Shown here one piece after another: positions 2,100 through 29,480 of a stretch of 29,480 nt of DNA. Both the position numbers and the translations under genes were made by a program. Each line of letters begins with the position of its first letter. The first letter of the stretch is position 1. This DNA is from a virus (taxonomy: Duplodnaviria > Caudoviricetes): the IMG/VR virus record IMGVR_UViG_3300017778_007387, positions 1 through 29,480 of that record, one strand, 5' to 3'. The notes below the pieces were generated by a model that was not told where the DNA came from, searched no databases, and saw only the letters and a program-made list of their open reading frames with translations.

Positions 2100-2102
2100 A
2101 GA

Positions 2103-3007: not shown

Positions 3008-3021
3008 GGTTACCAACTGGG

Positions 3022-3029
3022 TATAAATA
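3022..3029 (+). promoter_or_regulatory. T4-type late promoter TATAAATA upstream of gp25
   Basis: Exact TATAAATA in the 27-nt intergenic gap, 5 nt before ATG 3035. Confidence 0.8.
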
Positions 3030-3034
3030 ATACT

Positions 3035-3427
3035 ATGGCACGAAGTACCCGAACCTATACTGATTTTAACCTTCTTTTTTCGCGTAATCCCATTTCTGGG
3101 GATGTGGCGGTGAAGTCGGATGAGGAGGCTGTAAAGTCGGCTATAAGAAATTTAATTTCTACCAGACATTATGAAAGACCCTTTCATTCTGAAATTGGAT
3201 GTCAAATACATGGTTTATTGTTTGAAAATTTTACCCCAGTCACCGTACAGTTAATTAAACGCTCTATCTTTGATGTTATTGAAAAATTCGAACCCAGAGC
3301 CACCGTACTTGATGTCAACGTGCGCGAAAGAGTAGATCTGAATCAAATCGATATGGAAATTATTTTTAGAGTAAATAATTCAGAAAAACCAATTACCCTA
3401 ACAACATTTGTCACCCGAGTACGATAA
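3035..3427 (+). CDS. gp25: Baseplate wedge subunit gp25
   Basis: YTDFNLLF, AVKSAIRNLIST, ERPFHSEIGCQIHGLLFE and IEKFEPRA are gp25/GPW signatures. Directly upstream of gp6. Confidence 0.95.
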   Translation: MARSTRTYTDFNLLFSRNPISGDVAVKSDEEAVKSAIRNLISTRHYERPFHSEIGCQIHGLLFENFTPVTVQLIKRSIFDVIEKFEPRATVLDVNVRERVDLNQIDMEIIFRVNNSEKPITLTTFVTRVR

Positions 3428-6969: not shown

Positions 6970-7017
6970 TTATTTAAAAATTCCAAAAAAGTGATTTGCT
7001 ATAAAAACGTTTTAAAC

Positions 7018-7063
7018 GATAAATATAACATAATATAAATTTAATTATAATTTTCTTAAGGAG
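7018..7063 (+). promoter_or_regulatory. Probable late promoter(s) and Shine-Dalgarno site for ORF 7069
   Basis: AT-rich intergenic region with GATAAATA (7018-7025), TATAAATT (7034-7041) and AAGGAG (7058-7063). Confidence 0.55.
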
Positions 7064-7068
7064 AAAAT

Positions 7069-7518
7069 ATGTTTACTGAATCTGTTGCCCTTAAAGGCAA
7101 AGTTAATATTATTCATCTAGATCAATTTGGTAACACAAAAGATGAAAGAAATATAGAGAATTTAGTTGTAACTGCTGGTAAGACTGTTATTGCGTCTAGA
7201 ATGGCGGGTAATACCTCTGCTCTTATGTCTAGAATGGGTGTTGGTACTAATAATACAGCCGCCGTTATTGGGGATACCTCTCTGGGCGCGGCAATTGCAG
7301 CAGGGAATGTTGTTCTAGATTCAACCACCGCCTCAACTAATACCATCACCTATGTTGCTACGTTCCCCGCTGGTACCGGGACAGGGGCTATTGTAGAGGC
7401 AGGCATCTTTAATGGATTCCCTGGTGTAGGGTCTATGCTATGCCGTACAGTATTTCCGGTGGTTACCAAAGGTGCTGGCGACGTTATTGTTATTACATGG
7501 GTGGTGAGTATATCATAA
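7069..7518 (+). CDS. Small structural protein, possibly a fibre-attachment (tail-collar/DUF3751-like) domain
   Basis: 149 aa with a strong SD. NLVVTAGK, MGVGT, FPAGTGTGAIVEAGIFN and MLCRTVFPVVTKG resemble tail-fibre N-terminal attachment domains. Sits between gp7 and gp8. Confidence 0.55.
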   Translation: MFTESVALKGKVNIIHLDQFGNTKDERNIENLVVTAGKTVIASRMAGNTSALMSRMGVGTNNTAAVIGDTSLGAAIAAGNVVLDSTTASTNTITYVATFPAGTGTGAIVEAGIFNGFPGVGSMLCRTVFPVVTKGAGDVIVITWVVSIS

Positions 7519-7519
7519 T

Positions 7520-9658
7520 ATGTCATTCTTACTAAAAGATACCTTCCACAACTCGTTGGTGGAGACGGTATATGAGGATATATTGGCTGGGAGATCTATC
7601 TATTATTATTTTATAGGTAGATTTTTAGCATGGGGTGATGAAACTACCCCCGATACGCCTCAATCCACAGATCAGTATGAGTATGATACTCGTAATAGTA
7701 TCTTAAGTGTAAAGAAAATACAACCCACCGATGTCTCCTTGGTGGTGCCCAGAAGAGATTGGGCAACTGGCACGGTGTATGATCGGTATGATGGCGAGTA
7801 TAATGTTAATTACACTTCTGATTCAGGCGCTACAAGTCCAAAGACAGCAAAATTTTATGTATTGACTACAGCATTTAATGTTTATAAATGCCTAGATAAT
7901 TTTAACGGGGCTGCCTCAACCTCACAACCTACAGGCACGAATTTTACACCGGATACTTATGCCGATGGTTATGTTTGGAAGTATCTTTATACCATACCAC
8001 TCTCCCTGAGAAATAGATTTTTAACTGCCGCTTTCATGCCAGTTCAAAAATCTATCCACAATCAATTTTATTCTGGCGGTGAGGTGGAGAGTGTTATAAT
8101 TGACAATGCAGGGTCGGGCTACCTGGGTAATGCTTACACCACTCTTACTGTTAATGGTAATTTTAGAAGCGGTACAGGTAATTCTATAGCTAATTTAAGA
8201 GCAGTTTTTAACGGTTCGGGCAGTTTTTTAGATGTAATAGTTGATGATGCAGGCGGCAATTATAGCAACGCAACTATTGTTATAAACGATACCCGGGGGC
8301 TGGGTGCAAGCTTCTTTAAGGGACTTAGTAATGTTTTTATATCTAACGTTGGTTCGGGTTATATAACTAATGCTATAGTTAATACGACTGCCACCATTGC
8401 AACAACCGGGTTATCCCAACCAACATCTAATGCTAATGTTACTTTAAACTTTAGTAATAGTTTTCTAACAGGGGTGGTAATTAATAATCGCGGTAGTGGG
8501 TATAATGCAGCTGCTATTGCCAACACAACTTTTTCTATCACCACCACCGGCAATACCCAACCAACTGTTAATGCTAAAGCTAATATCTTCTTTACCAGTA
8601 CAGCTATCCTTACTCCGGTAATTTTTAATAATCAAATTAATAAAATTTTAATAGAAGACCCGGGCTTAAATTATGGGGCAAATAATCAAACTACTATTTC
8701 CTTAATCGGTGATGGCACTGGTGCTGCATTAACACCGTTTGTAAATGCAGCTGGTCAGATAGAAGATATTATAGTAGAATCGAGAGGCAGTGGTTATACA
8801 TATCTAGATATTGCTTTTGTGGGTGATGGTACCTCTGCCAACGCTTATGCTGATCTATCTACAGGGGACCTAAGTACCCAGCAAAGTACTGTGGAACTGT
8901 CTGCAATTAATGGTGCTATCTATGCGCTAAGAATACATGGAGTAGGTGATCATTATTCAAATGCCAACATAACTATATCAGGTAATGGTACAGGGTTTGT
9001 GGGTAATGTTGTGGTAGACAATGCCAATAATACCATAGATTATATTTCAGTAACTAACCCAGGTTCTGGCTATTCTTATGCAAATGTTGTTATAACAGGA
9101 CCCAGTGGCAGCGGTAATGCCAATGTGACAGCTATTCTTTCTCCTGTAGGCGGGCATGGATTCAATCCTGTTAAAGAATTATACGCCGATGCTATTATGC
9201 TATATTCTACTATTAATGATGAGAAGAATCAAAATATCTCTATTGTTAATGATTACAGACAGTTTGGTATAATTAAAGATGTCAAACAATACGCTAATTC
9301 AAAAATATTCGCAAATGTGATAGGTAGTTCTTGTTTCCTTGTGACGGTAAACTCTGTAGGCTCTTTGGCACGTGATACCCTGTTACAACTAACTACAGAC
9401 ACCACGCGCGAATTTACCGTGGTAGAGACGGTAGCTGCTACTAATCAAATACTATTAAACAGTCTCAACGAATATGTATTTGCAGTAGGGGATGTATTAG
9501 ATGACCCTATCACATCTATAGACTATACTGTAAGCGCTATAAACAAATATCCAAGCATAAATAAATTTAGTGGTGATCTTCTTTACATTGATAACAGAAC
9601 ATCGATTAGCTACAGTGACGAACAGCTTGTAAAATTAAGAACAGTAATAAAATTATAA
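7520..9658 (+). CDS. gp8: Baseplate wedge subunit gp8, expanded with GSGY-type modules
   Basis: YYYFIGRFLAW, VVPRRDWATGTVYDRY, FYVLT..FNVYKCLDN, DGYVWKYLYTI, PVGGHGFNPVKEL, NDYRQFGIIKD and SGDLLYIDNR are gp8 signatures. Confidence 0.92.
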   Translation: MSFLLKDTFHNSLVETVYEDILAGRSIYYYFIGRFLAWGDETTPDTPQSTDQYEYDTRNSILSVKKIQPTDVSLVVPRRDWATGTVYDRYDGEYNVNYTSDSGATSPKTAKFYVLTTAFNVYKCLDNFNGAASTSQPTGTNFTPDTYADGYVWKYLYTIPLSLRNRFLTAAFMPVQKSIHNQFYSGGEVESVIIDNAGSGYLGNAYTTLTVNGNFRSGTGNSIANLRAVFNGSGSFLDVIVDDAGGNYSNATIVINDTRGLGASFFKGLSNVFISNVGSGYITNAIVNTTATIATTGLSQPTSNANVTLNFSNSFLTGVVINNRGSGYNAAAIANTTFSITTTGNTQPTVNAKANIFFTSTAILTPVIFNNQINKILIEDPGLNYGANNQTTISLIGDGTGAALTPFVNAAGQIEDIIVESRGSGYTYLDIAFVGDGTSANAYADLSTGDLSTQQSTVELSAINGAIYALRIHGVGDHYSNANITISGNGTGFVGNVVVDNANNTIDYISVTNPGSGYSYANVVITGPSGSGNANVTAILSPVGGHGFNPVKELYADAIMLYSTINDEKNQNISIVNDYRQFGIIKDVKQYANSKIFANVIGSSCFLVTVNSVGSLARDTLLQLTTDTTREFTVVETVAATNQILLNSLNEYVFAVGDVLDDPITSIDYTVSAINKYPSINKFSGDLLYIDNRTSISYSDEQLVKLRTVIKL

Positions 9659-9668
9659 CAGGTAAAAG

Positions 9669-16063
<6,395 letters not shown>

Positions 16064-16067
<4 letters not shown>

Positions 16068-16303: not shown

Positions 16304-16519
16304 ATGGCTGCAACACTAACGCTTAGGGTACCAACGGGAGTTCCACTCACCAACGCCCAGGTGGATAATAACTTCTCCCAACTTAACGCTTTTGGTAATA
16401 CTATCAACGGTAATGTGGGGGTGCTTACTAATCTAACCACCTCTGCCAACGGTAATATTGTGGTGGCGATTAATGAAATAAACGCCGCCGTAACAGCAAT
16501 TGCAATTGCACTTGGATAA
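16304..16519 (+). CDS. Very short fibre/connector protein with a C-terminal AIAIALG tag
   Basis: LR..G.PLT..QVDNNFSQLN resembles phage fibre N-termini. LTTSANGNIVVAINEI is a fibre coiled-coil-type motif. The C-terminus is hydrophobic. Confidence 0.6.
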   Translation: MAATLTLRVPTGVPLTNAQVDNNFSQLNAFGNTINGNVGVLTNLTTSANGNIVVAINEINAAVTAIAIALG

Positions 16520-16530
16520 CAGGAAACAAA

Positions 16531-16863
16531 ATGGCAAACACATTCACCCGAAAACTATCTCGTAGCATAGGTACCACAGCCACACGCGTGGGGTCCTATA
16601 CGGTGGCAGCTTCCACCTCCACCACCGCCATTGGCCTATCGGTGGCCAATACCTCTACAGTAGCTATAAGTGCTAATGTATTTCACTCCGATGGTACCGA
16701 TAACACCTACATTGTATATAACGCCCCAATACCGGCAGGTGGTTCATTGGTGGCGGTGGGTGGCGATCAAAAGATCGTGCTGGTTACCGGGGATGGTATT
16801 TTTGTACAATCTACGGCGGCAAGTTCGGTAGATGCAATTCTGTCAATACTTGAAATTACTTAA
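16531..16863 (+). CDS. 110-aa beta-rich putative fibre adaptor protein
   Basis: SD AGGA. MANTFTRK...GLSVAN...IPAGGSL...KIVL..GD...VDAILSILEIT has the same pattern as ORF 20075..20443. Confidence 0.6.
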   Translation: MANTFTRKLSRSIGTTATRVGSYTVAASTSTTAIGLSVANTSTVAISANVFHSDGTDNTYIVYNAPIPAGGSLVAVGGDQKIVLVTGDGIFVQSTAASSVDAILSILEIT

Positions 16864-16877
16864 ACGGGGATAGAAAA

Positions 16878-18359
16878 ATGGCTTATCTTGGTCAACCGCC
16901 AGCCTTTGCGGCGTTAACTGCAGCTGATATTACTGACGGCATAATTACAGCGGCAAAGATTGCAAATGAGACGGGTACCGGTGAGGTAGTTTTTTCAAAT
17001 AGCCCTACTATAACTACGCCATTACTTGATAACATAAAATTAGGGTACACCACCACTGCCACAGCAGCTGGCACCACCACACTGACAGTATCTAGTACCC
17101 ATCAGCAGTTTTTTACCGGCTCTTCCACACAAACTATAGTCTTACCGGTGGTATCTACCCTGGTGACAGGTTTAGGTTATTTTATTCAGAATAATAGTTC
17201 TGGTATCTTAACTATACAATCGTCTGGGTTAAACACCATTACCACTATTGGTGCTGGTTTTGCGGCTTTATGTACCTGCATATCTACCAGCGGTACTTCT
17301 GCTGCATCTTGGGATACAGAGTTTACAGGATTTAGTACCCTTACAGGTACGGGTAATGTGGTATTATCAACAAACGCTGTCTTAACTACACCTGCACTTG
17401 GAACACCTTCTGCTATCATATTAACTAGTGGTACGGGGCTACCTTTAACTACAGGGGTAACAGGCACTCTCCCTGTAGCCAATGGCGGTACAGGTGTTAC
17501 TAGTAGCACAGGTACGGGTAATGTGGTATTATCAACAAACGCTGTCTTAACTACTCCCGCACTTGGAACACCATCAAGCGGCGTTGCAACTAATTTGACG
17601 GGCCTGCCTCTCACTACAGGGGTAACGGGAACGCTACCTGTTGCTAATGGTGGTACAGGTGTTACTAGTAGCACAGGCACAGGTAATGTGGTATTATCAA
17701 CAAACGCAGTCTTAACCACCCCTGCACTTGGAACACCTTCTGCTATCATATTAACTAGTGGTACGGGGCTACCTTTAACTACAGGGGTAACGGGAACGCT
17801 ACCAGCAGCTAATGGCGGCACCGGAGTAGCAAATAACGCTGCTATGACCGTAACAGGTGCTGGTAATTTTGCCTACACGCGAACGCTCACAGCCGCAACC
17901 AATGTCACGTTTCCCACTACAGGGACTCTAGCAACATTAGCTGGTTCTGAGACACTATCCAATAAGACCTTAACAGCACCCGCACTAGGTACACCTTCCA
18001 GCGGCACATTATCTTCTTGTACGGTTGATGGTACAAACAAGGTGGGCTACCAAAATATTCCGCTATCGGGTATCAAGACAGCTAGCTACACCCTTGTTGC
18101 TGGGGATGTAGGTAAGTTTGTAGAGTTAGGTACGTCAGGTACAATTGTTGTCCCGGCATCTGTATTTGCGACAGGTGATGTAATCAGTATCTTCAACAAT
18201 ACAGCAGGGACTATCTCCTGCACTTGCTCTGCTGTTACGACAGTTTATAAGGGTGGCACGAATGCAGATATTAGCACCTTTAGCATTACTACAAGGGGGG
18301 TGGCTACCATACTTTTTATCACTGCTACAGTTGCTGTGATCACGGGTAACTTAGCATGA
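16878..18359 (+). CDS. Tail fibre-like protein with 55-aa repeats and two small beta-sandwich-like modules
   Basis: Thr/Gly-rich, with GTLPVANGGTG and ETLSNKTLTAP fibre motifs. Starts MAYLGQPP. ATGA-coupled to the next gene. Confidence 0.75.
   Translation: MAYLGQPPAFAALTAADITDGIITAAKIANETGTGEVVFSNSPTITTPLLDNIKLGYTTTATAAGTTTLTVSSTHQQFFTGSSTQTIVLPVVSTLVTGLGYFIQNNSSGILTIQSSGLNTITTIGAGFAALCTCISTSGTSAASWDTEFTGFSTLTGTGNVVLSTNAVLTTPALGTPSAIILTSGTGLPLTTGVTGTLPVANGGTGVTSSTGTGNVVLSTNAVLTTPALGTPSSGVATNLTGLPLTTGVTGTLPVANGGTGVTSSTGTGNVVLSTNAVLTTPALGTPSAIILTSGTGLPLTTGVTGTLPAANGGTGVANNAAMTVTGAGNFAYTRTLTAATNVTFPTTGTLATLAGSETLSNKTLTAPALGTPSSGTLSSCTVDGTNKVGYQNIPLSGIKTASYTLVAGDVGKFVELGTSGTIVVPASVFATGDVISIFNNTAGTISCTCSAVTTVYKGGTNADISTFSITTRGVATILFITATVAVITGNLA
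17343..17828 (+). repeat. 165-bp (55-aa) tandem repeat, ~3 copies
   Basis: TGTGNVVLSTNAVLTTPALGTPS units start at 17343, 17508 and 17673. Confidence 0.9.
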
Positions 18360-19474
18360 GCGGGATCATGCATAGTTTGTGGGGTGGTAGTTTTGCATCT
18401 GGACCATTTTTGTACGCCTGGGGTAATGTCGGCAATGGCGCGCTGGGTAATAATTTAGCTGTGGGAAATAAATCCAGCCCTACCCAGATTGGTGCTTTAA
18501 CTGCTTGGTCACAGGTTGCTGCTGGTAATCAAGGCTCCGGGGCCATTAAAACCGATGGTACAATGTGGTTGTGGGGGGGTAATGATACTGGGCAGCTGGG
18601 TGATGATACTAATGTGGTTAAATCCAGTCCTGTCCAGATCGGTGCTTTAACCACCTGGTCAAAGATTGATCGCGGTCAAACTACGGCTATTGCCCTTAAA
18701 ACTGATGGCACAATGTGGACTTGGGGTAGGAATAATAACTTTGGTCAGCTTGGTGATAATACAGTAATAAATAGGTCCAGCCCCGTGCAGGTAGGTACAT
18801 TAACCACCTGGACGTTGATTGCTGCTGGTCAATACTTTAAAGTAGCTATTAAAACCGATGGTACGATGTGGTCATGGGGTACTAATGTTGATGGTCAACT
18901 AGGTGGTAATACAGTAATAAATAGATCCAGTCCGGTCCAGATTGGTGCCTTGACTACCTGGTCTAAAATTGATGTTGGTGCTAAACACTGTTTAGCCATT
19001 AAAACCGATGGTACATTGTGGACCTGGGGCAATAATCAATTAGGTCAGCTGGGCAATAATACAGATGGAACTATTACTAATAGATCCAGTCCTGTCCAGA
19101 TCGGTGCATTAACTACCTGGTCAAAGATTTCCGGTGGTCGAGTATTCTCTTTGGCTATTAAAACCGATGGTACGTTGTGGGCCTGGGGTAGTAACGCGGC
19201 ATGTGGTGAGCTGGGTGATAGTACAGCATATGATAAATCCAGCCCTATACAGATTGGCGCTTTAACTACTTGGTCTCAGATTGCTACTGGTTTTAGTGGT
19301 GACCACTCCTTAGCCCTTAAAACCGATGGTACAATGTGGTCTTGGGGTAAAAATGTTGATGGTCAACTAGGTGGTAATAATGTTATCTATTTATCAAGTC
19401 CGGCACTAGTCGGTACTTTAACCTCCTGGACTCAGATTGCTGCCGGCACTGCTCATTCCTTAGCTATAGGCTAG
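18356..19474 (+). CDS. RCC1/BLIP-II-like 7-repeat beta-propeller protein, putative receptor-binding head
   Basis: Seven ~50-aa repeats of WxWGxNxxGQLGxxxxxxxSSPVQIGxLTTWSxIxxGxxHxxAIKTDG after a short N-terminal peptide, MSGIMHSLWGG. Confidence 0.9.
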   Translation: MSGIMHSLWGGSFASGPFLYAWGNVGNGALGNNLAVGNKSSPTQIGALTAWSQVAAGNQGSGAIKTDGTMWLWGGNDTGQLGDDTNVVKSSPVQIGALTTWSKIDRGQTTAIALKTDGTMWTWGRNNNFGQLGDNTVINRSSPVQVGTLTTWTLIAAGQYFKVAIKTDGTMWSWGTNVDGQLGGNTVINRSSPVQIGALTTWSKIDVGAKHCLAIKTDGTLWTWGNNQLGQLGNNTDGTITNRSSPVQIGALTTWSKISGGRVFSLAIKTDGTLWAWGSNAACGELGDSTAYDKSSPIQIGALTTWSQIATGFSGDHSLALKTDGTMWSWGKNVDGQLGGNNVIYLSSPALVGTLTSWTQIAAGTAHSLAIG

Positions 19475-19563
19475 TATATTTACATGATTTTACTACCAAC
19501 AACTAAATGTGTATATTTACCCAGTGTTCAATTTGGTTTATAAAACATGCTCTCCGATTTACG

Positions 19564-19571
19564 TATAAATA
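19564..19571 (+). promoter_or_regulatory. T4-type late promoter TATAAATA upstream of ORF 19599
   Basis: Exact TATAAATA in the intergenic region, 27 nt before the ATG. SD AGGA at 19589-19592. Confidence 0.8.
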
Positions 19572-19598
19572 TTACATAGAATTTAAATAGGAATAAAA

Positions 19599-20039
19599 AT
19601 GGCGTATATCGGACAAGCCCCATCCGTATCTGTAGCTAATAGCCAGATTTCTGGCAATATTATTAGCTCGCAGATCACCTCGGTGGCTAACACCCAGATC
19701 ACCGGTAATATTATTAGTTCACAGATTACCTCGGTGGCCAATAGCCAGATCACCGGTAATATTATTAGCTCGCAGATTACATCGGTGGCTAACACCCAGA
19801 TCACCGGTAATATTATTAGTTCACAGATTACATCGGTGGCCAATAGTCAGATCACCGGTAACATCATGATAACGCAAATACAGCCCGCAGGCGCTACAGC
19901 CGGGGTATATGGTAGCACATCGGTTATACCTGTCATAACAGTGGATTATGCCGGTCGTCTTTCTTTTGTAGCCAACGCCACCCCCACCTTTGCAACGACT
20001 GGAAAAGCCATTGCAATGGCCATGGTCTTTGGCGGATAA
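19599..20039 (+). CDS. Short fibre protein with 17-aa repeats and a C-terminal GKAIAMAMVFGG tag
   Basis: Starts MAYIGQAP, then five SVANxQITGNIISSQIT units and the fibre motif AGVYGS...IPVITVDYAGRL. Confidence 0.7.
   Translation: MAYIGQAPSVSVANSQISGNIISSQITSVANTQITGNIISSQITSVANSQITGNIISSQITSVANTQITGNIISSQITSVANSQITGNIMITQIQPAGATAGVYGSTSVIPVITVDYAGRLSFVANATPTFATTGKAIAMAMVFGG
19629..19883 (+). repeat. 51-bp (17-aa) tandem repeat, 5 copies
   Basis: tcggtggc(t/c)aa...cagatcaccggtaatattattag recurs every 51 bp, with units alternating ANSQ and ANTQ. Confidence 0.92.
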
Positions 20040-20074
20040 ATAAAAAAACAATTGTATTTCTAAGGAAGAATTAA

Positions 20075-20443
20075 ATGGCCGCACCCAATATTGTAAACGT
20101 TGCTACTATAACAGCTAAATCAGCTGCCGCATTATTAACCGCATCTTTGGCATCCCAGGTATCCAACGCCGCATCAAGCGGCAAGGTGCTGAAGATTAAT
20201 AATATAGTTATATCTAATATTACAGCTTCTGCAGCCACCGTAAGGTTGGCTTATAATACAGCGGCTGCAGGTGCTGGGTCCTCATTTTATCTGGCATATG
20301 ATATTTCAGTGCCAGCGGCAGCTTCTTTAATTATCACCGATAAAACCACATCATTTTATTTAGAAGAAAATTCATCTATTGTTGCCCTGGCTGGTACTAC
20401 ATCAGCCCTACATTGTGTGGTATCTTTCGAAGAACTTTCCTAA
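20075..20443 (+). CDS. 122-aa beta-rich putative fibre adaptor protein
   Basis: SD AAGGA. MAAPNIVNV...IVISN...ISVPAAASL...FYLEEN...LHCVVSFEELS parallels ORF 16531..16863. Confidence 0.6.
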   Translation: MAAPNIVNVATITAKSAAALLTASLASQVSNAASSGKVLKINNIVISNITASAATVRLAYNTAAAGAGSSFYLAYDISVPAAASLIITDKTTSFYLEENSSIVALAGTTSALHCVVSFEELS

Positions 20444-20478
20444 GTTTTGAGAATAGATTCTTTTAAGAGGCAATATTA

Positions 20479-21609
20479 ATGTCTAAGCGTTATAACGGAG
20501 GATTTTTATCGGCTGTTTGGACTCCACTTGCTGAACACGGTGATAATAATTTTTTGTATCTTTGGGGTGGGAATGGTAATTATGGTAGAGTGGGTGATAA
20601 TACAACGATAAGTAGATCCAGTCCCGTTCAGGTTAGTACAGTTACCTGGTCAAAAATTACTGGTGGTAAAAATCATTCCTTAGCCATTAAAACCGATGGT
20701 ACGATGTGGGCTTGGGGAGATAACTCTGCTGGTGCTGTAGGTGATAATTCAGTAGTAAATAGATCAAGCCCTGTACAAATTGGCACTCTAGTCACTTGGT
20801 CCCAGATTGCTGCCGGGACACATAGTATGGCCCTTAAAACTGATGGTACATTGTGGGCTTGGGGAGAAAATGCCAATTATGGTGCTGTAGGTGATAATAC
20901 AGCTATAGCTAGATCCAGCCCCGTCCAGGTAGGTGCATTAACTACTTGGTCCAAAGTTGCTGCAGGTCGATTTCACTCCTTAGCCATTAAAACCGATGGT
21001 ACCCTGTGGGCCTGGGGAAACAATCTTTCTGGCCAACTGGGTAATCAGGGATTAGGATCAGCGTATAAATCCAGTCCTGTCCAGATCGGCGCTTTAACCA
21101 CCTGGTCAAAGATTGCTGGTGGTCAAGATCACACCATGGCAATTAAAACTGACGGTACCCTATGGACCTGGGGAAAAAATAACCAAGCTGCTCTGGGTGA
21201 TAATACAATAATACATAGATCAAGCCCGATACAAGTTGGTGCTTTAACTACCTGGTCCCAGATTGCTGGTGGGCAGAGTCAAACCTTAGCTGTTAAAACT
21301 GATGGTACAATGTGGTCCTGGGGAGATAATGGTTCAGGTCAGGTGGGTGATAATACAACGATAAGTAGATCCAGTCCCGTTCAGGTTGGTGCTTTAACCA
21401 CTTGGTCTATTATTTCTCGTGGTAGTAATACCGCTATGGCTATTAAAACTGATGGTACATTGTGGGTGTGGGGGAATGGTAGTCAAGGTCAACTAGGTGA
21501 TAATACAGGTGTAGGTAAAAGCAGTCCCATACAGGTGGGTGCATTAACATGGTCCTTAACAGCTCAAGGGGATAATCACTCTATTGGCCTTGTAGCTATT
21601 CCCTTCTAA
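20479..21609 (+). CDS. RCC1/BLIP-II-like 7-repeat beta-propeller protein
   Basis: Seven RCC1-type repeats after the N-terminal peptide MSKRYNGGFLSA. SD GAGG. Confidence 0.9.
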   Translation: MSKRYNGGFLSAVWTPLAEHGDNNFLYLWGGNGNYGRVGDNTTISRSSPVQVSTVTWSKITGGKNHSLAIKTDGTMWAWGDNSAGAVGDNSVVNRSSPVQIGTLVTWSQIAAGTHSMALKTDGTLWAWGENANYGAVGDNTAIARSSPVQVGALTTWSKVAAGRFHSLAIKTDGTLWAWGNNLSGQLGNQGLGSAYKSSPVQIGALTTWSKIAGGQDHTMAIKTDGTLWTWGKNNQAALGDNTIIHRSSPIQVGALTTWSQIAGGQSQTLAVKTDGTMWSWGDNGSGQVGDNTTISRSSPVQVGALTTWSIISRGSNTAMAIKTDGTLWVWGNGSQGQLGDNTGVGKSSPIQVGALTWSLTAQGDNHSIGLVAIPF

Positions 21610-21648
21610 TCCTATGCATAATAATTTACAAAGACTCGGAGTTTTTTC

Positions 21649-23892
21649 ATGCCATTAGCAGTACAATCTTCAGGAATGTGGACGTTGGCACAGCTGTTTC
21701 AGGCTGTGGGGGCTAGTACATGGAAGGGTATTCTAGAAGATTATTTGTGGACCTGGGGAACAAACGGCAATGGGGGGCTGGGTGATAACACCATATTAAG
21801 TAGATCTAGTCCCGTTCAAGTCGATTCTTTACATACTTGGTCACAAATTTCTTCTGGCGGTCACGTAATGGCCATTAAAACCGATGGTACAATATGGAAC
21901 TGGGGTGGTAATACTTACGGTCAACTAGGTAATGAAACCGTAATACTTAGATCCAGCCCTGTACAGGTTGGTATATTAACTACCTGGTCTAAAATTGCTG
22001 CAGGTACCTATCACTCTATGGCCATTAAGACTGATGGTACCATGTGGCTCTGGGGTCGTAATACTTACAGTACTGGCGGTGGTCAGTTGGGTGATAATAC
22101 AATAATAAGTAGATCCAGTCCTATTCAGGTTGGTGCTCTTACCACTTGGTCTTTAATTGCTGCTGGTACCTATCACAGCATAGCCACTAAAACCGATGGT
22201 ACAATGTGGTCTTGGGGGGTGGGGTCTAACGGTGCGCTGGGTGTTAACACTGTATTAAATAGATCCAGTCCTGTACAGATTGGTGCACTAACTACCTGGT
22301 CAAATATTTCTGGTGGTTTACGTCACTCTATGGCTATTAAAACCGATGGGTCGTTGTGGGCCTGGGGTAGAGCTGTTTGCGGTCAGCTGGGTGATAATAC
22401 AAGAGTGTATAGATCCAGTCCTGTTCAAATTGGTACAACTCCAATTGAAGAAACCCTCTGGTCACAAATTGCTGCTGGAGGTCGATACTCCATAGCTACG
22501 GAAACCGATGGTACATTGTGGGGATGGGGACGCAATCAAATCGGTCAGCTGGGTCGTAATTCAGTAGTATACGCAACCAGTCCTGTACAAATTGGCACTC
22601 TATCCACCTGGTCATTGATTGCTACTAGTATTGGTTATACCACCGCGGCTCTTAAAACAGATGGTACGATGTGGAATTGGGGAAGTAATACTAGTGGCCA
22701 ACTGGGTAATAATACAATATTACCTAGATCCAGTCCAGTCCAAGTTGGTGCTTTAACCACCTGGTCCAAGATTGCTAATGGTGAAGAGTTCTCTATGGCC
22801 CTCAAAACCGATGGTACTTTGTGGAACTGGGGTTATAATTTTTACGCTCAGCTGGGTGATAATACAATAATAAATAAATCCAGTCCAATTCAGGTAGGGG
22901 CTTTAACCACCTGGTCTCAGATTGCCCCTGGTCAGCACCACTCTATAGCTCTTAAAACCGATGGTACGATGTGGGCCTGGGGACGTAATCAAATCGGTCA
23001 ACTAGGTGATGGTACAGTAATATCCAGATCTAGTCCCGTGCAGATTGGTGCTCTTACTACTTGGTCATCGATTGCTGGAGGTGGTACGTTTCATTCCATG
23101 GCCATTAAAACCGATGGCACAATGTGGACTTGGGGTGACAATAGTTCTGATGGTAGACTAGGGGATGGTACACAAATAAATAGATCAAGTCCTGTACAGG
23201 TTGGTGCTTTAACCACCTGGTCCAAGATTGCTGGTGGTACGTTTCATTCTATGGCTATTAAGACCGATGGCACAATGTGGGTCTGGGGTAAAAATAGTGA
23301 TGGTCAGCTGGGTAATAATACAGGATCAATAAGTAAATCCAGTCCTGTACAAATAGGATCTTTAACTACCTGGTCCAAAATTGTTGGAACAGAACACACA
23401 TTAGCAATTGAAACTGATGGGGCGTTATATGGCTGGGGACTTAATATTAATGATGCACTGGGTGATGGGTCAGCTGCAAATAGATCCAGCCCAGTTCAAA
23501 TCGGTGCTGGTAATGGTCAGATTGGTTGGTCTAAGGTTGCTGCCAATAGTCAACAAACCTTAGCCATTAAAACCAATGGTACGATGTGGTCGTGGGGTGA
23601 AAATCAGGGAGGCGGTTTTGGTAAATTGGGATTAAATGATACGGTCTATAGATCAAGCCCAGTTCAAGTTGGAGCTCTAACCACCTGGTCTCAGATTGAT
23701 GGGGGATCAGAATGGTGTATGGCTATTAAAACTGATGGTACTTTGTGGGCTTGGGGTTCTAATGGCGCTGGACATCTAGGTGATAACACCATATTAAGTA
23801 GATCCAGCCCGGTCCAGATTGGTACATTAACCACCTGGTCTAAAATTACCGCCGGCGGAGCTACTGTGGGTATCGCATCACTTCCCTCTTAA
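21649..23892 (+). CDS. RCC1/BLIP-II-like 14-repeat (double propeller) protein
   Basis: Fourteen repeats counted. N-terminal SSGMWTLAQ peptide. SD GGAG at 21638-21641. Confidence 0.9.
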
Positions 23893-23899
23893 TTAACTA

Positions 23900-23928
23900 T
23901 TGATTTTTACCTCAAAATAGGTTATAAT
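23900..23928 (+). promoter_or_regulatory. sigma70-like promoter TTGATT-N17-TATAAT upstream of the sulfotransferase fusion gene
   Basis: TTGATT at 23900-23905, a 17-bp spacer, and a perfect TATAAT at 23923-23928, all within the intergenic gap. The region is AT-rich, so a chance match is possible. Confidence 0.65.
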
Positions 23929-23961
23929 TATTTTTTTATTCACTCTTTTACTATATAAATC

Positions 23962-25725
23962 ATGAAAAGTATTTACTTCCTGGCAGGTCTTCCTCGGTCT
24001 GGTTCCACCGTTCTGGCAGCTATTCTTAATCAACACCCATCTGTTCATGCCACGTCTACCTCTGGGTTACTAGATATTCTGGTGGGTACACTTACTGCCT
24101 GGAATAACAGTCAGACGGTGAGAGCATCCATGGATAAGGCAGCCAATGAAGATGAAATCAAGCGTATTCTACGTAATATTTGCGAAGAAAAATATGCCAC
24201 TATTGATAAACCTGTTATTCTAGATAAAGCCAGGGGTTGGTCATCCAGTATCAATATCCCTACTATGGCAAATGTTCTTGGTCATAAACCTAAAATTGTA
24301 GCCACCGTTCGTAATATTCCAGATTGTGTGGCATCATTTGTTAGAATTGCCAAGCCTGAAGACAAATATCAATTTCTTCGTGATTCAGATCTTGTAGGCC
24401 ATGTTAAGGAGTCCTATCAGTCTCTAGAATCCGGGTATCATTTTGCACCAGAATGTATTCTATTTGTAGACTATGATGACTTGATGCGTGATCCTGCAAC
24501 TCAATTAAAACGCGTACATAAGTTTTTAGATCTACCCGATCATGAGTATGATTTTGATACCCTGGATGGTGCTAATCTCAAGGAGCGAGATGAAGAGGTT
24601 TGGTCTGTTAAGGGTCTTCATGATATTAAACCTAAGTTGGGGTATCAGCATTATGAGGATCCAAAAGACGTATTGGGTCATATGTATGATCAATACCTGC
24701 AACCAAGATTCTGGCTCAACGAACAAACTACCTCCAGACCCATACATAAACTAGATCTACAGCTTACCGCCAGTCTAATGGGCAATTTTAAAGAAGGTTG
24801 GAGGCTGGCTCAGGAGATCGAGGCTGATGAGCCCTGGAATCATCGTGCAGCATTCAATCGTGGCTGGTATAAGTTACAACAGGGTAAGCTTCTAGAGGGC
24901 GAGCAGCTATTATTCCGCGGTCGTATTGAAAAAGTATTCGGCAACCCTATACCCCGGGTACCTACTCAAATGTGGGATGGTGTATCTAAGGGTACTGTAC
25001 TTTTAAATCTTGAAGGGGGACTGGGTGATCAGATCCATGGAGCCCGTTATGCCAGATACATAACCGATAAAGGGTGTGAGGTAATAATTGCATGTTCTGG
25101 TGAAATAGCTACTCTGTTAAGAGGTATTAAAGGGGTGGTGGCGGTGGTGCAGCATGATGCTGTTTTTGGGGTGGTGCATGATTACTGGACCCCATCTATG
25201 TCCACTGTTATGCCCCTGGGACTAGAATATTCTGATGTAGACGGCTCTGCCTATATAAATAAACCAGAGGTTAAACAACATCAGGGTTTGAGAATAGGAT
25301 TAAGGTGGCAGGGTAATCCAGCTTTTGAGCATGAGCAGCATAGAATCTTTCCACCTAATCTAATGTTCGATGCATTGAAGGATCTAGATGCAGAGTTTAT
25401 TTCTTTGCAGCGAGATAAAGGAGCGGAATTTTGTCCCAGCTGGGTCAAGCAGGTTCCATTGGATGCTTGGGAAGATACGAAGGCGGCAATTGCATCATGT
25501 GATTTGGTAGTTAGTTCATGCACATCAGTTGCACACTTATCAGGTGCTATGGGTGTACCAACATGGATTATGGTACCGATTCTACCATATTATTTGTGGG
25601 CTAGGGAGGGTGATACCACACCTTGGTATGATAATGTACGATTATTCAGGCAGGAAGAATTTGGTGATTGGTCTGGTGCTTTTAAGAAGCTTAATTTAAA
25701 ACTCGCAGAAATGCAAACTAAGTAA
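23962..25725 (+). CDS. Sulfotransferase - TPR-like - glycosyltransferase (GT9-like, GT-B) fusion protein
   Basis: N-terminal PAPS-loop GLPRSGST, plus ILDKARGW, VRNIPDCVASF and VDYDDLMRDP. Helical segment PWNHRAAFNRGWYKLQQGKLLEG. C-terminal EGGLGDQI, IGLRWQGNP, DLVVSSCTSVAHLSGAMGVPTW and TPWYDNVRLFRQEEFGDW. Confidence 0.85.
   Translation: MKSIYFLAGLPRSGSTVLAAILNQHPSVHATSTSGLLDILVGTLTAWNNSQTVRASMDKAANEDEIKRILRNICEEKYATIDKPVILDKARGWSSSINIPTMANVLGHKPKIVATVRNIPDCVASFVRIAKPEDKYQFLRDSDLVGHVKESYQSLESGYHFAPECILFVDYDDLMRDPATQLKRVHKFLDLPDHEYDFDTLDGANLKERDEEVWSVKGLHDIKPKLGYQHYEDPKDVLGHMYDQYLQPRFWLNEQTTSRPIHKLDLQLTASLMGNFKEGWRLAQEIEADEPWNHRAAFNRGWYKLQQGKLLEGEQLLFRGRIEKVFGNPIPRVPTQMWDGVSKGTVLLNLEGGLGDQIHGARYARYITDKGCEVIIACSGEIATLLRGIKGVVAVVQHDAVFGVVHDYWTPSMSTVMPLGLEYSDVDGSAYINKPEVKQHQGLRIGLRWQGNPAFEHEQHRIFPPNLMFDALKDLDAEFISLQRDKGAEFCPSWVKQVPLDAWEDTKAAIASCDLVVSSCTSVAHLSGAMGVPTWIMVPILPYYLWAREGDTTPWYDNVRLFRQEEFGDWSGAFKKLNLKLAEMQTK
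25254..25261 (+). promoter_or_regulatory. Possible intragenic late promoter TATAAATA
   Basis: Exact consensus inside the enzyme gene, ~480 nt upstream of ORF 25741. Could be chance. Confidence 0.35.
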
Positions 25726-25740
25726 GTATAGGAGAAAAAT

Positions 25741-26175
25741 ATGGTAACAAGAACAACGGGATTTTGGATTCGTGAACAAAGCGGTGCTGTGACCGATTGC
25801 TGGGATGTAAAGCCCAATGATACAAAAATAGCCACCGAACCAGGATGGCGTGCAGCGGAGGAGGTTAAGCCCGATGTAACCCCTAATCGTGAATACATTA
25901 CCACCCATTCATTTGATCTGACTGTGACACCGGCAGAAATTGTCTGGGCAAAAACCTCACTGACAGTGGAAGATCGTCGCGGTGGGTTGCTGGGTGGTGC
26001 CAAGGGTAAGCTACAGCAGGTGGTGCAAGAGCAACTTCGCCTAGAAATGAGTGCTGATCCTGCTGAAGAATTTGATCCTGCCGCCGTTACAGCGGTAAAG
26101 GCTGAGATTGCAACACGTGTGGCAGCTATTAACGCCGCTGTAACCCATGAAGATCTAGACGCATTAATGGAATAA
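25741..26175 (+). CDS. Hypothetical protein, possibly a tail-fibre assembly/chaperone-like protein
   Basis: Strong SD AGGAG. The helical C-terminus AAINAAVTHEDLDAL resembles tail-fibre assembly proteins. Directly precedes the largest RCC1 gene. Confidence 0.5.
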   Translation: MVTRTTGFWIREQSGAVTDCWDVKPNDTKIATEPGWRAAEEVKPDVTPNREYITTHSFDLTVTPAEIVWAKTSLTVEDRRGGLLGGAKGKLQQVVQEQLRLEMSADPAEEFDPAAVTAVKAEIATRVAAINAAVTHEDLDALME

Positions 26176-26176
26176 T

Positions 26177-29100
26177 ATGGCAGGAGCATTTCCCGGCGGG
26201 GTTATAACCAAGAGTCCCACTGCAACGGTGGGACCGACTAATACTGAGTTTGGGTCGGAGGGCGGATCGGCGTCGGGAATGTGGACACTGGATCAGGCTC
26301 TATCATTAAAATCAGCCGGATTATGGCCATTAAAGACTTTAGAAAAGTATTTGTGGGCTTGGGGAACAGGTTCTACTAATGGACAGTTGGGTGATAATAC
26401 AGTAATAGATAAATCCAGTCCTATACAGGTTGGTGCTCTAACCCCCTGGTCTAATATTGCTGGGGGAAGTCAACACTCTATGGCTATTAAACCCGATGGT
26501 ACCATGTGGACTTGGGGTCAAAATACTAATGGCCAGCTGGGTGTTAATACAATAACAAATAGATCCAGTCCTGTACAGGTAGGCTTATTAGGCACCTGGT
26601 CTAAGATTACTAGTGGCGATAGTCATAGTATAGCTATTAAGACAGATGGTACTATGTGGATCTGGGGAAGCAATGAGCATGGTCAGATAGGTAATAATAC
26701 AATAGTACCTAGATCAAGCCCTGTACAAATTGGTGCTTTAACTACCTGGTCGTCAGTTGCTGCTGGCCAGGTGCACTCTATTGCCCTTAAAACCAATGGT
26801 ACAATGTGGTCCTGGGGAAATAATGCTAATGGTCAGCTAGGTGATAATACAATAGCAAAAAAATCAAGCCCCATACAGATTGGTGCATTAACCACCTGGT
26901 CTCAGATTGATGCTGGTGGTACTTTTACTATAGCCATAAAAACCGATGGTACAATGTGGGCATGGGGTATAAACACTAATGGTTCCGTGGGTGATGGTAC
27001 AATATTAAATAGATCAAGCCCAGTTCAGATTGGTGCTTTAACCACCTGGTCACAGATTGCTGGTGGTACTGCTCATTCTATGGCCGTTAAAACAGATGGT
27101 ACCATGTGGGCCTGGGGAAATAATGATGGCCGGTTAGGTGATGATGCAATACTAAGAAGATCCAGTCCCATACAAGTAGGTACATTAACTACCTGGTCTC
27201 AGATTGATGCTGGTACTCATTCTATTGCTACTAAAACAGATGGTACTATGTGGGCTTGGGGTGAAAATGCTGACGGTGTGTTAGGTGATAATACTGTAAT
27301 AGCTAGATCCAGTCCTGTCCAGATAGGTACATTAAGTACTTGGTCTTTAATTGCTGCTGGTACTGGACACAATATGGCTATTGAAACTGATGGTGCACTG
27401 TACACCTTTGGGGCTAATAGTGATGGTAAACTAGGTGATAATACAATAATATACAGATCTAGTCCTGTACAGATTAACTATACACCCGGAGCAGGAGATG
27501 CTAATTGGTCTCAGCTTGCTGCAGGCTTTGCTGAACACGTCTTGGCAATTAAAACTGATGGTACAATGTGGTCCTGGGGTAGAAATAGTACTGATGGTAG
27601 ACTAGGTCATAATGACAGAATATCTAAGTCCAGCCCCGTTCAAATTGGTGCATTAACCACCTGGTCCAAGATTGCTGCTGCTTCTTATCACTCCGCCGCT
27701 CTTAAAACTGATGGTACAATGTGGCTCTGGGGGCAAAATGAGTATGGGGCATTAGGTGATAATACAATAATAGATAGATCCAGCCCCGTCCAAATTGGTG
27801 CATTAACCACCTGGTCCAAGATTGCTGTAAATGAACAGCATAGTGCTGCTATTAAAACAGATGGTACTTTATGGACATGGGGTAAAAGTGATACCATAGG
27901 GTTTTTTTATGGTACCCTGGGTGATAATGCAGCAATACAAAGATCTAGCCCCGTACAGATTGGTGCAGGAACCACCTGGGATCAGATTGCTGCAGGTCAA
28001 CAATATAACATGGCCCTTAAAACTGATGGAACGATGTGGGCCTGGGGACGTAATGATTATGGACAACTGGGAAATAACACGGAAATAAATAGATCAAGCC
28101 CTGTTCAAATTGGTATATTAACTACATGGTCAAAGATTGCTGTTGGCCAGCGTCACACCTTAGCTATTAAAACCGATGGTACGTTGTGGGCCTGGGGCAG
28201 TAGCACCGCATTAGGTGATAATACAATAATAGCTAAATCTAGCCCCATACAGATTGGTGCATTAACCACCTGGTCAAAAATTTCTGGAGGTGATTTTCAC
28301 TCTTTAGCCATTAAAACAGACGGTTCTTTATGGACCTGGGGTAGTAATAATACTGGCATGCTGGGAGATATTACAGTAATAAGTAAATCTAGTCCTGTTC
28401 AGATAGGGGCTGAGGTATATGGTTGGTCATTAAGTAGTGCGGGCACTTCTCATTCCTTAGCCATTAGAGCAGATGGTACGTTGTGGGCTTTTGGGTATAA
28501 CACCGGAGTTTTCGGTGCTGGACAGTTGGGTGATAATACTGTAATAGCTAGATCCAGTCCTGTGCAGATAGGTCCATTAACTACCTGGTCAAAGATCTCT
28601 GGTGGTTGGGGACACAGTGTTGCTCTTAAAACCGATGGTACAATGTGGGCTTGGGGAGATGGTGATACTGGCAGTCTGGGAAATAATGCAGTATTAGAAA
28701 GATCTAGTCCTGTGCAGGTTGGTGCACTAACCACCTGGTCTCAGGTTTCTGCTGGTAATGGTTACTCCATGGCCATTAAAACCGATGGTACAATGTGGTC
28801 TTGGGGGCAAAATAATTATGGACAACTGGGGGTTAGCACAATAACAAATAGATCCAGCCCTGTACAGATTGGTGCTTTAACCACATGGTCACAAATTAGT
28901 GTTAGTAACAGTTCCATGGCGATTAAAACTGACGGTACGATGTGGTCCTGGGGAAATAATGTTGATGGTCAACTAGGTGGTAATACTGTAATAAATAGAT
29001 CCAGCCCTGTACAGGTAGGCGCTTTAACCACCTGGTCAAAAATTAGTGTTGGTGAAATACACTCTGTGGCTATTAAAACTGACGGCACTATGTGGGCGTG

Positions 29101-29480
29101 GGGGGGTAATACTCAAGGGCAAATAGGTGATAATACAGTAATAAGAAGATCTAGTCCTGTGCAGGTTGGTGCATTAACTACCTGGTCACAAATTAGTGTT
29201 AGTGAAACACACTCTAAAGCCATTAAAACTGACGGTACGATGTGGTCCTGGGGGCTAAATAATAGTGGCCAGCTGGGGGATAGCACAGATATAAATAGAT
29301 CCAGCCCCATACAAGTAGGCGCCTTAAATACCTGGTCACAAATTGATAATGGTGAAACCCACTCTATGGCCATTAAAACAGATGGTACGATGTGGACCTG
29401 GGGAGTTAATCTTCATGGTCGGCTGGGTGATGATACGGCAATATTTAAAAGCAGCCCAGTACAGATTGGATTAACTCCTT
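26177..29480 (+). CDS. RCC1/BLIP-II-like multi-propeller protein, at least 1101 aa and 21 repeats, 3'-truncated by the window (absent from the ORF track)
   Basis: Hand translation from ATG 26177 (MAGAFPGGVITKSPT...SASGMWTLDQALSLKSAGLWP...YLWAWG) stays open to the window end (...[11 protein letters not shown]). Confidence 0.9.
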   Translation, partial: MAGAFPGGVITKSPTATVGPTNTEFGSEGGSASGMWTLDQALSLKSAGLWPLKTLEKYLWAWGTGSTNGQLGDNTVIDKSSPIQVGALTPWSNIAGGSQHSMAIKPDGTMWTWGQNTNGQLGVNTITNRSSPVQVGLLGTWSKITSGDSHSIAIKTDGTMWIWGSNEHGQIGNNTIVPRSSPVQIGALTTWSSVAAGQVHSIALKTNGTMWSWGNNANGQLGDNTIAKKSSPIQIGALTTWSQIDAGGTFTIAIKTDGTMWAWGINTNGSVGDGTILNRSSPVQIGALTTWSQIAGGTAHSMAVKTDGTMWAWGNNDGRLGDDAILRRSSPIQVGTLTTWSQIDAGTHSIATKTDGTMWAWGENADGVLGDNTVIARSSPVQIGTLSTWSLIAAGTGHNMAIETDGALYTFGANSDGKLGDNTIIYRSSPVQINYTPGAGDANWSQLAAGFAEHVLAIKTDGTMWSWGRNSTDGRLGHNDRISKSSPVQIGALTTWSKIAAASYHSAALKTDGTMWLWGQNEYGALGDNTIIDRSSPVQIGALTTWSKIAVNEQHSAAIKTDGTLWTWGKSDTIGFFYGTLGDNAAIQRSSPVQIGAGTTWDQIAAGQQYNMALKTDGTMWAWGRNDYGQLGNNTEINRSSPVQIGILTTWSKIAVGQRHTLAIKTDGTLWAWGSSTALGDNTIIAKSSPIQIGALTTWSKISGGDFHSLAIKTDGSLWTWGSNNTGMLGDITVISKSSPVQIGAEVYGWSLSSAGTSHSLAIRADGTLWAFGYNTGVFGAGQLGDNTVIARSSPVQIGPLTTWSKISGGWGHSVALKTDGTMWAWGDGDTGSLGNNAVLERSSPVQVGALTTWSQVSAGNGYSMAIKTDGTMWSWGQNNYGQLGVSTITNRSSPVQIGALTTWSQISVSNSSMAIKTDGTMWSWGNNVDGQLGGNTVINRSSPVQVGALTTWSKISVGEIHSVAIKTDGTMWAWGGNTQGQIGDNTVIRRSSPVQVGALTTWSQISVSETHSKAIKTDGTMWSWGLNNSGQLGDSTDINRSSPIQVGALNTWSQIDNGETHSMAIKTDGTMWTWGVNLHGRLGDDTAIFKSSPVQIGLTP

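Follow-up and report, generated by a model that had tools for sequence, protein, structure and literature searches.

The 29,480-nt window analysed here, a stretch of freshwater phage DNA, contains four plus-strand open reading frames in its tail region that together hold 49 RCC1 repeats (Table 1). We think it probable that the seven propellers predicted from these repeats form a fibre-tip set that binds the host surface through a variable face and is slowly reshaped by recombination. Directly observed are the number of repeats, the positions that vary, the homogeneity of the repeats within the genome, the tracts they share, their stability between strains and the genes around them. Each gene would encode a short N-terminal leader followed by one to three propellers, and the leader would dock on a fibre end or on a small jelly-roll protein, as gene order and fusions in relatives suggest. 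The propellers would be displayed at the ends of branched tail fibres, where one variable face of each is likely to contact host-surface molecules. The 150-nt units would recombine both inside a gene and from one gene to another, which would keep the frame uniform and shift loop segments; purifying selection would preserve the frame, while six to seven binding-face residues would be under mild positive selection. The set would be inherited and altered by block exchange over evolutionary time, not rebuilt each generation.

Table 1. Features of the window discussed in the text.
Feature	Position	Strand	Description
T4-like baseplate module	318..16067	+	genomic context of the RCC1 genes
110-aa protein	16531..16863	+	second candidate adaptor
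493-aa fibre-like gene	16878..18359	+	55-aa repeats
RCC1 gene 1	18356..19474	+	372 aa, 7 repeats, one predicted propeller
Exact match to the T4 late-promoter consensus, TATAAATA	19564..19571	+	between genes, 28 nt ahead of the 146-aa gene
146-aa fibre-like gene	19599..20039	+	17-aa repeats, hydrophobic C-terminal motif
122-aa predicted jelly-roll protein	20075..20443	+	candidate adaptor, fibre end to propeller leader
RCC1 gene 2	20479..21609	+	376 aa, 7 repeats, predicted 7-bladed propeller
RCC1 gene 3	21649..23892	+	747 aa, 14 repeats, two predicted propellers; type B leader
587-aa fusion	23962..25725	+	N-terminal sulfotransferase (Pfam hit); C-terminal half putative TPR + glycosyltransferase
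144-aa conserved cassette gene	25741..26175	+	no family
RCC1 gene 4	26177->29480	+	21 repeats, three predicted propellers; 1101 aa within the window, open at the window end

The repeats of all four genes are about 50 aa long. Pfam RCC1 matches the genes with E values of 6.5e-63 to 6.2e-196, and PF00415 scores of 208-635 bits, compared to a curated cut-off of 21.7, place them among RCC1-like domains (RLD). The original prediction gave 7, 7, 14 and at least 21 repeats. The first three counts stand, and the last is exactly 21 in strain L173, which is 99.67% identical to the window across 11,673 nt and has a complete gene 4 homologue of 1123 aa; this count brings the total to seven propellers. Repeat number is a multiple of seven in all four genes. 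The framework had been described as almost invariant, which holds for 16 of the approximately 50 columns (at least 90% identical) and fails for the remainder; mean pairwise identity of the repeats is 59% in amino acids, and the best pair shares 82% of its nucleotides. Three short segments had been said to vary in sequence and length in nearly every repeat, and the loops quoted as examples are indeed found in the repeats. The variation in sequence was borne out, whereas length is canonical in 36 of 49, 45 of 49 and 39 of 48 repeats and therefore varies in a minority only. Per-column entropy, from repeats aligned with a profile built from the window itself, peaks at 3.2-3.7 bits at six positions inside these segments: 6, 8 and 9 (after WG), 19 (before RSSP), and 39 and 40 (between G and H). 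Each repeat has six to seven hypervariable positions, and among the 49 repeats of strain L173 no two share the same combination of seven variable residues.

A structural model of gene 2 (pLDDT 92.9, pTM 0.89) has seven four-stranded blades and resembles UVR8, HERC2 and RCC1 (TM 0.82-0.88). Together with the repeat counts, this one modelled propeller is consistent with the proposal of seven 7-bladed propellers. UVR8, RCC1, the HERC RLD domains and BLIP-II share the predicted fold of the phage repeats; their blades, however, have diverged individually, and the blades of BLIP-II are three-stranded rather than four-stranded as in the phage model. Repeat positions 6, 8, 19, 39 and 40 align to UVR8 W94, D96, D107, W285 and R286. 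W94 and W285 are located at the UVR8 dimer interface (PMC7455749), R286 is part of the surface that binds COP1 and RUP2, and a D96N D107N mutant is monomeric (PMC13322755). By alignment to these interface residues, rather than by model coordinates, the variable sites lie on one face, as had been predicted, and this face corresponds to the one with which UVR8 engages its partners.

The RCC1 genes follow baseplate and fibre genes, and gene 1 and the fibre gene that precedes it overlap at start and stop, respectively. The baseplate module encodes a gp5-like hub, PAAR, gp25, gp6, gp7- and gp8-like wedge proteins and a 2132-aa DUF4815 protein. At position 19564, TATAAATA matches the T4 late-promoter consensus exactly. 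Because the same pattern with one mismatch occurs at chance level (74 against 83), we cite only the two exact intergenic sites; scans for sigma-70 promoters and terminators were likewise at chance level. Judged by gene order and the putative promoter, the RCC1 genes would belong to a late-expressed tail module, as phage receptor-binding proteins do. The C-terminal domain of the 493-aa fibre-like protein resembles the end domains of other phage fibres, and its counterpart in relative L205 is also followed by an RCC1 gene. A resemblance of this domain to one fused to RCC1 in L027 was discarded as not clearly related (E 0.006). L099 has a fusion of an RCC1 propeller with a domain homologous to the 110-aa protein, the hydrophobic C-terminal motif of the 146-aa gene is common to genes upstream of adaptor homologues, and fold matches to the 122-aa candidate adaptor are weak (best E 2e-4, TM about 0.5). 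The leader of gene 2 is of type A (25 aa), and that of gene 4 resembles types A and B joined. Leaders are conserved across phages. In eight proteins whose leader shares 89-98% identity with that of L179, identity over the whole protein is 77-100%. The leader of gene 3 is itself strain-variable, a block at 21659-21735 having been exchanged between strains.

Several observations point to homogenisation within the genome. Exact runs of at least 25 nt are shared by 16 repeat pairs, compared to a mean of 3.3 and a maximum of 10 in 200 shuffles, and some of these runs include loop codons and connect genes 1 and 4. The nearest DNA neighbour of each of the 48 full repeats, among 1,592 repeats, is inside the window, and synonymous identity at 12 invariant columns is 0.47, compared to 0.29 from codon usage. 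Recent duplication as the only source of homogeneity was rejected because no pair exceeds 82% nucleotide identity and repeats at the same blade are no closer than others (0.669 vs 0.668). In eight of ten orthologous cassettes the frame resembles other genes of its own genome more closely than it does the orthologous blade (0.68 vs 0.60 for the window's own cassette), so that repeats group by genome rather than by orthologous position; homogenisation was absent in the other two (L001, L040), and the repeat tree is mostly unresolved. One contig joint skips 1,245 nt of gene 4, from repeat 7 to repeat 15, at a shared 35-nt exact repeat, and was set aside as evidence since it may be an assembly artefact on that repeat. 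The HNWD WD-repeats of Podospora anserina (het-d, het-e) also evolve in concert within and between genes and group by genome; a few residues on their interaction face are positively selected (PMC1805685). The likeness is one of analogy and not of membership, as HNWD repeats are WD40 repeats of fungal NACHT receptors and the phage repeats are RCC1; moreover, HNWD repeats are up to 100% identical (PMC1805685), compared to at most 82% of nucleotides in the phage repeats.

Three alternatives to a host-binding set were weighed. Diversity-generating retroelements (DGRs), such as that of Bordetella phage BPP-1 Mtd, and lamprey VLRs combine a constant scaffold with variable binding residues, and the original prediction likened the set to antibodies or VLRs. 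Hypervariable sites set in a constant frame, the richness of the variable positions in Asn and the two variable-site changes that occur together between strains in repeat 21 of gene 4 would suit an active system of this type that makes new loops per lineage or generation, yet we consider such a system highly improbable. Of the 49 repeats, 48 have the same residues at the variable positions in L173 as in the window, contrary to the strain-level loop variation that had been anticipated, and the contig pieces listed from four runs differ from gene 4 at 0-2 sites outside the repeat-21 block. These comparisons use contigs, which drop rare variants; among reads mapped at 85% similarity, those of related phages predominated, which made loop statistics unusable. 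A is involved in 62% of variable-site differences vs 50% elsewhere, and the third base is A or G in 80 of 288 variable codons, an outcome that an AAY template does not allow. A DGR mechanism was rejected on the lack of an adenine-specific signature and of any repeat pair above 82% nucleotide identity. The template repeat and adenine bias of the BPP-1 system have no counterpart here, and no reverse transcriptase was found among the open reading frames of this 29-kb genome fragment or above the cut-off in five related, incomplete records. The silent cassettes and somatic assembly of VLRs have no counterpart either: the window has no silent cassettes, all repeats lie inside intact open genes and, in the contig data, strains are nearly identical. 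The set is germ-line and nearly fixed in the population, without a DGR signature and with an aromatic-poor face, and the antibody- or VLR-like mechanism was not upheld.

It is rather unlikely that the propellers, although on the virion, have a face that is unconstrained or that binds weakly and unspecifically, for example to particles, mucus or sheath, with no distinct receptor specificities. Residues at the variable positions are 55% small polar and 8% F/W/Y, compared to 15% in the family, as such a face might be, and orthologous genes encode one to three propellers, with single genes missing from some cassettes. Within the window, pN/pS of the loops is near 1 (approximately 1.0-1.6), and synonymous sites there are near saturation, so that this ratio does not separate positive selection from relaxed constraint. 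Eight close orthologue pairs of relatives (83-99% nucleotide identity), between which differences are patchy, show a contrast between variable face and frame: pN/pS is 1.34 at variable positions (bootstrap 1.04-1.69) and dN/dS is 0.26 elsewhere, with repeats treated as independent and recombination ignored. In these pairs, pN exceeds pS at positions 6, 8, 9, 19 and 40 (ratios of 1.25-1.76), which argues against an unconstrained face, as does the match of the variable positions to a binding face known from a relative, given that the other exposed positions hardly vary. Less likely again is a role within the head or in the infected cell, where the proteins would organise DNA or would inhibit host proteins in the manner of BLIP-II, a seven-bladed propeller inhibitor (PMC6121496). 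The authors of the phAPEC6 and W70 studies suggest that RCC1-like proteins order packaged DNA (PMC7247149, PMC11370258), and the W70 RCC1 genes (237-239) are apart from the structural genes (106-137) (PMC11370258). In the window, by contrast, the RCC1 genes have fibre genes as neighbours. Of 14 long N-termini scanned in homologues, 12 carry tail-fibre, Ig-like or FN3 domains ahead of the RCC1 part, and the variable face lacks a basic character (K+R 8%, D+E 12%).

Multi-copy, virion-associated RCC1 genes of phages have already been published. The myovirus genomes of coliphages phAPEC6, 121Q, PBECO4, GAP32 (gp1) and W70 (gp237-239) carry several RCC1-propeller genes, as the window does, with eleven in phAPEC6 (PMC7247149); these and the window genes hit the same PHROG, phrog_4219 (PMC11370258). 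Some were seen in virions by mass spectrometry, namely in W70 and GAP32, and the authors of these studies proposed that they help to pack DNA (PMC11370258, PMC5259590). The GAP32 and PBECO4 proteins are distant from those of the window (17-18% identity; GAP32 17%), and the coliphage sets lack its homogenised repeats, its up to three propellers per chain and its fibre operon beside a sulfotransferase fusion. The repeat type of the window recurs in two freshwater myoviruses in culture, Synechococcus phage S-SRM01 (NC_070963; 47% identity) and BUCT-ZZ01 (ON615601; 44%), with 20 and 14 repeats in the regions compared, against 49 in the window, and with different leaders. S-SRM01 has three such RCC1 genes behind a fibre gene, together with TPR, sulfotransferase and glycosyltransferase genes; the main text of its paper mentions neither RCC1 nor chromosome condensation. 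A single exact 12-residue motif identifies the family in about 490 stored IMG/VR stretches, and other phage fragments carry 56-83 repeat matches. The window is an ordinary, well-stocked member of this widespread RCC1-repeat family, and the scale and homogeneity that had been thought to stand out are typical of it. Databases mislabel these phage genes as regulators of chromosome condensation, and little is known about how the abundant uncultured phages of fresh water recognise their hosts. Should the propellers prove to be adhesins, they would represent a motif-marked family that evolves in concert like fungal recognition repeats and that can be tested in a cultured cyanophage.

More tentatively, the genes may form a mobile cassette in unrelated aquatic phages that specifies a branched, sulfated and glycosylated fibre tip, an HNWD-like repertoire with one ligand per propeller. 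This possible cassette would pair RCC1 propellers, anchored through their leaders, with a jelly-roll adaptor and a hydrophobic fibre end, and the linked sulfotransferase and glycosyltransferases would decorate the propellers; such decoration would explain the conserved serines and threonines of the exposed frame. Phage adhesins of this kind, glycosylated and sulfated, would make up a large class not described before, for which S-SRM01 would be the cultured test case. The 146-aa fibre-like, 122-aa jelly-roll, 587-aa sulfotransferase fusion and 144-aa genes, all within the same stretch, went unmentioned in the original prediction. The C-terminal half of the 587-aa protein matched no family and no solved relative. 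Of 56 related locus groups, 49 have a sulfotransferase or TPR/glycosyltransferase-like gene in the vicinity, and 31 have the 144-aa gene near RCC1 genes.

The four RCC1 genes are real, and the anatomy originally predicted for them is largely right. All four ORFs match Pfam RCC1 far above the cut-off, and the repeat numbers expected for the first three were found. The last ORF, for which at least 21 repeats had been claimed, is open at the window end; in L173, a near-identical strain (99.67% identity across 11,673 nt), it stops at 1123 aa and contains exactly 21, so the region encodes 49 repeats, or seven propellers. The framework, described as nearly invariant, is so in part: 16 of the roughly 50 repeat columns are at least 90% identical, but mean pairwise repeat identity is 59% (aa), the closest pair sharing 82% (nt). 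Three windows had been said to vary in both sequence and length; entropy maxima of 3.2-3.7 bits at repeat positions 6, 8, 9, 19, 39 and 40 bear out the former, but loop length is canonical in 36/49, 45/49 and 39/48 repeats, so variation is chiefly in sequence. The left part of this 29,480-nt virus record is a T4-like baseplate module, and freshwater metagenome is the label of all seven public runs (7/7) containing at least half of the words sampled from 19480-26400.

Coordinates of the RCC1 genes, their neighbours and other features of the window
Feature	Position	Strand	Description
gp5-like hub	318-2099		
Linker in DUF4815 protein	13503-13618		
Three-gene pattern, first copy	16304-16863		
110-aa protein	16531-16863		second candidate adaptor
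RCC1 gene 1	18356-19474	+	7 repeats of ~50 aa
Three-gene pattern, second copy	19599-20443		
122-aa protein	20075-20443		candidate adaptor
RCC1 gene 2	20479-21609	+	7 repeats of ~50 aa
Gene 2 leader	20479-20553		type A
RCC1 gene 3	21649-23892	+	14 repeats of ~50 aa
Gene 3 leader	21649-21744		type B
Strain-variable part of gene 3 leader	21659-21735		
Sulfotransferase fusion	23962-25725		587 aa
144-aa gene	25741-26175		
RCC1 gene 4	26177->29480	+	21 repeats of ~50 aa
Gene 4 leader	26177-26350		

An AlphaFold2 model of the gene 2 product (80-sequence alignment; pLDDT 92.9, pTM 0.89) has seven four-stranded blades behind a disordered leader (residues 1-20) and resembles UVR8, HERC2 and RCC1 (TM 0.82-0.88). 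The face was assigned by alignment to UVR8 chain 6xzm, the mutant D96N D107N W285A; repeat positions 6, 8, 19, 39 and 40 align with UVR8 W94, D96, D107, W285 and R286. W92 is the counterpart of position 4, which is conserved. A figure legend in PMC7455749 places W94, W198, W250, W302, W233, W285 and W337 at the UVR8 dimer interface and lists W92 with buried residues; in PMC13322755, R286 and R338 belong to the surfaces for COP1 and RUP2, and D96N D107N is monomeric. Judged by this alignment, the variable sites fall on one face, as had been proposed, and the partner-binding face would thus carry all three variable windows. In this phage, small polar residues make up 55% of the variable face and aromatic residues 8%; the aromatic share in relatives is 15% (2,185 repeats).

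We consider it reasonably probable that the seven propellers are heads of a branched fibre system and form a fixed set that undergoes concerted evolution, the binding face being under mild diversifying selection. Inside the window, pN/pS is 0.30 for the frame and 1.0-1.6 for the loops, with synonymous sites near saturation. In eight orthologue pairs (83-99% nt identity; pairs above 99.2% and below 80% omitted), the seven variable positions give a pN/pS of 1.34 (bootstrap 1.04-1.69 over 62 repeats) and the rest of the repeat a dN/dS of 0.26, the differences being patchy.

The repeats are homogenised within the genome. Exact runs of at least 25 nt are common to 16 repeat pairs (shuffled mean 3.3, maximum 10; 200 shuffles), the longest being 45 nt, and a 28-30-nt tract including loop codons is common to two gene 1 repeats and one gene 4 repeat. 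For 48/48 full repeats the nearest DNA neighbor among 1,592 repeats lies in the window. Synonymous identity over 12 invariant columns reaches 0.47, where codon usage would give 0.29. In 8/10 orthologous cassettes (the related loci L001 and L040 are exceptions), the frame resembles that of the genome's other genes more than that of the orthologous blade, and a poorly resolved tree of 237 repeats groups by genome (96 changes vs 171 shuffled). Both the remoteness of the nearest orthologues and the use of a profile derived from the window tilt the analysis somewhat towards this result.

The array had also been likened to an antibody or VLR system; it is very probably neither a DGR nor a VLR system. 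The window and L173 differ at 38 sites, clustered in the gene 3 leader and gene 4 repeats 19-21, and variable positions change in repeat 21 alone (positions 6 and 19), accompanied by synonymous changes that resemble block exchange. That repeat 21 allele occurs in run X5, a contig from run X2 spans the site without it, and other pieces listed from four runs have 0-2 differences from gene 4. Since contigs lose rare variants, these matches show stability of the majority sequence only. Adenine is involved in 62% of variable-site differences vs 50% elsewhere, and 80/288 variable codons have A or G as their last base, a pattern unlike DGR mutagenesis. A reverse transcriptase was detected neither in the window nor, above the cut-off, in five incomplete relatives; a DGR was rejected. 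Separately, strain differences in gene 3 concentrate in part of its leader (ten codons changed, six non-synonymously) rather than in its loops, and the same alleles occur in runs X3 and X6.

Scale and homogeneity had been thought outstanding, and the array is exceptional in neither. Five related fragments hold 83, 60, 56, 32 and 30 Pfam matches, and within-locus repeat identity, 0.60 in this phage, ranges from 0.42 to 0.71 (67 loci). By the tool's estimate, the exact 12-codon pattern occurs in about 490 stored IMG/VR stretches. Seven repeats are present in 178/232 complete unique RCC1 ORFs of the fetched loci, and cassettes of relatives usually have one propeller per gene. L001, L002, L008, L040, L080, L183, L209 and other loci share the arrangement adaptor, RCC1, RCC1, sulfotransferase fusion, 144-aa gene, RCC1. 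Among 56 non-redundant groups from RCC1 queries with a locus of at least 8 kb (50 smaller groups excluded), homologues of the sulfotransferase half lie near RCC1 in 39, of the C-terminal half in 48, where matches may reflect TPR alone, and of either in 49. GenBank phages gave 22 matching records; the top one, S-SRM01, has three RCC1-type genes after its fibre gene, and also TPR, sulfotransferase and glycosyltransferase genes. Phages that lack a T4-like context also have the cassette (L206, with a Phage_capsid_4/Mu gpT-like capsid gene, and L209), which suggests that it moves from one phage type to another.

Indirect clues bear on a place on the virion. The RCC1 genes lie behind genes for the baseplate and fibres. 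The fibre-like gene whose stop is overlapped by gene 1 has an end domain similar to those of collagen- and Mtd_N-type fibres, and an exact copy of the late-promoter consensus lies upstream of the gene run with RCC1 genes 2-4. N-termini of at least 100 aa are found in 46/207 complete homologues; 14 that were scanned included three with tail-fibre PHROGs, two with minor-tail PHROGs (one also FN3), seven with Ig-like Pfam domains, one glycine-rich and one without a match. The model of the 122-aa protein is a jelly roll (pLDDT 91.4) that weakly resembles viral cement and knob proteins, and in the related locus L099 a propeller carries a fused homologue of the 110-aa protein.

A three-gene pattern is found twice, in which a gene with a hydrophobic AIA...G motif at its end is followed by one for a beta-sandwich protein of 110-122 aa and then by a fibre or RCC1 gene. 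The gene upstream of 122-aa homologues has a clear motif in 29/34 cases and a variant in 4/34, and the pattern is possibly a fibre branch point. The gene 4 leader resembles the gene 2 and gene 3 leaders joined. Genes 2 and 3 are neighbors in most cassettes, and their products may pair via split leaders. A gene-4-type leader precedes a non-RCC1 domain in two related loci (L036:1684-2952, L053:6760-8019), so this leader can bear other heads.

Multi-copy phage RCC1 arrays are already known, and this array is a variant of them and a member of the RLD family. In published work, phAPEC6 has eleven RCC1-like proteins of unknown function (PMC7247149), the W70 virion holds three by mass spectrometry (PMC11370258), GAP32 gp1 is structural, with multiple copies in 121Q and PBECO4 (PMC5259590), BLIP-II is a seven-bladed propeller inhibitor (PMC6121496), and HNWD repeats evolve in concert (PMC1805685). 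The array probably works much as the HNWD repertoire does. RCC1 goes unmentioned in the main texts of PMC8557907, PMC12619734 and PMC12801897, and the searched literature (main texts, few subscription papers) yielded no paper that presents homogenised arrays of this kind as phage adhesins or links them to sulfotransferases. The array belongs to a widespread family seemingly undescribed in that literature.

Past the window end, the region of L173 that follows gene 4 (11759-13965) encodes glycosyltransferases of family 25 and, by a weak match, family 2, together with two methyltransferases; the related locus L179 additionally has a UDP-galactopyranose mutase and an APS-kinase-like gene. Virion glycosylation in mycobacteriophages is cited in PMC12619734. 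Perfect 6-nt repeats within the gene for the 2132-aa DUF4815 protein encode a linker of (Pro-Ala)n and (Pro-Thr)n, and the gp5-like hub C-terminal domain matches an endolysin PHROG (phrog_894), unlike the T4 lysozyme arrangement.
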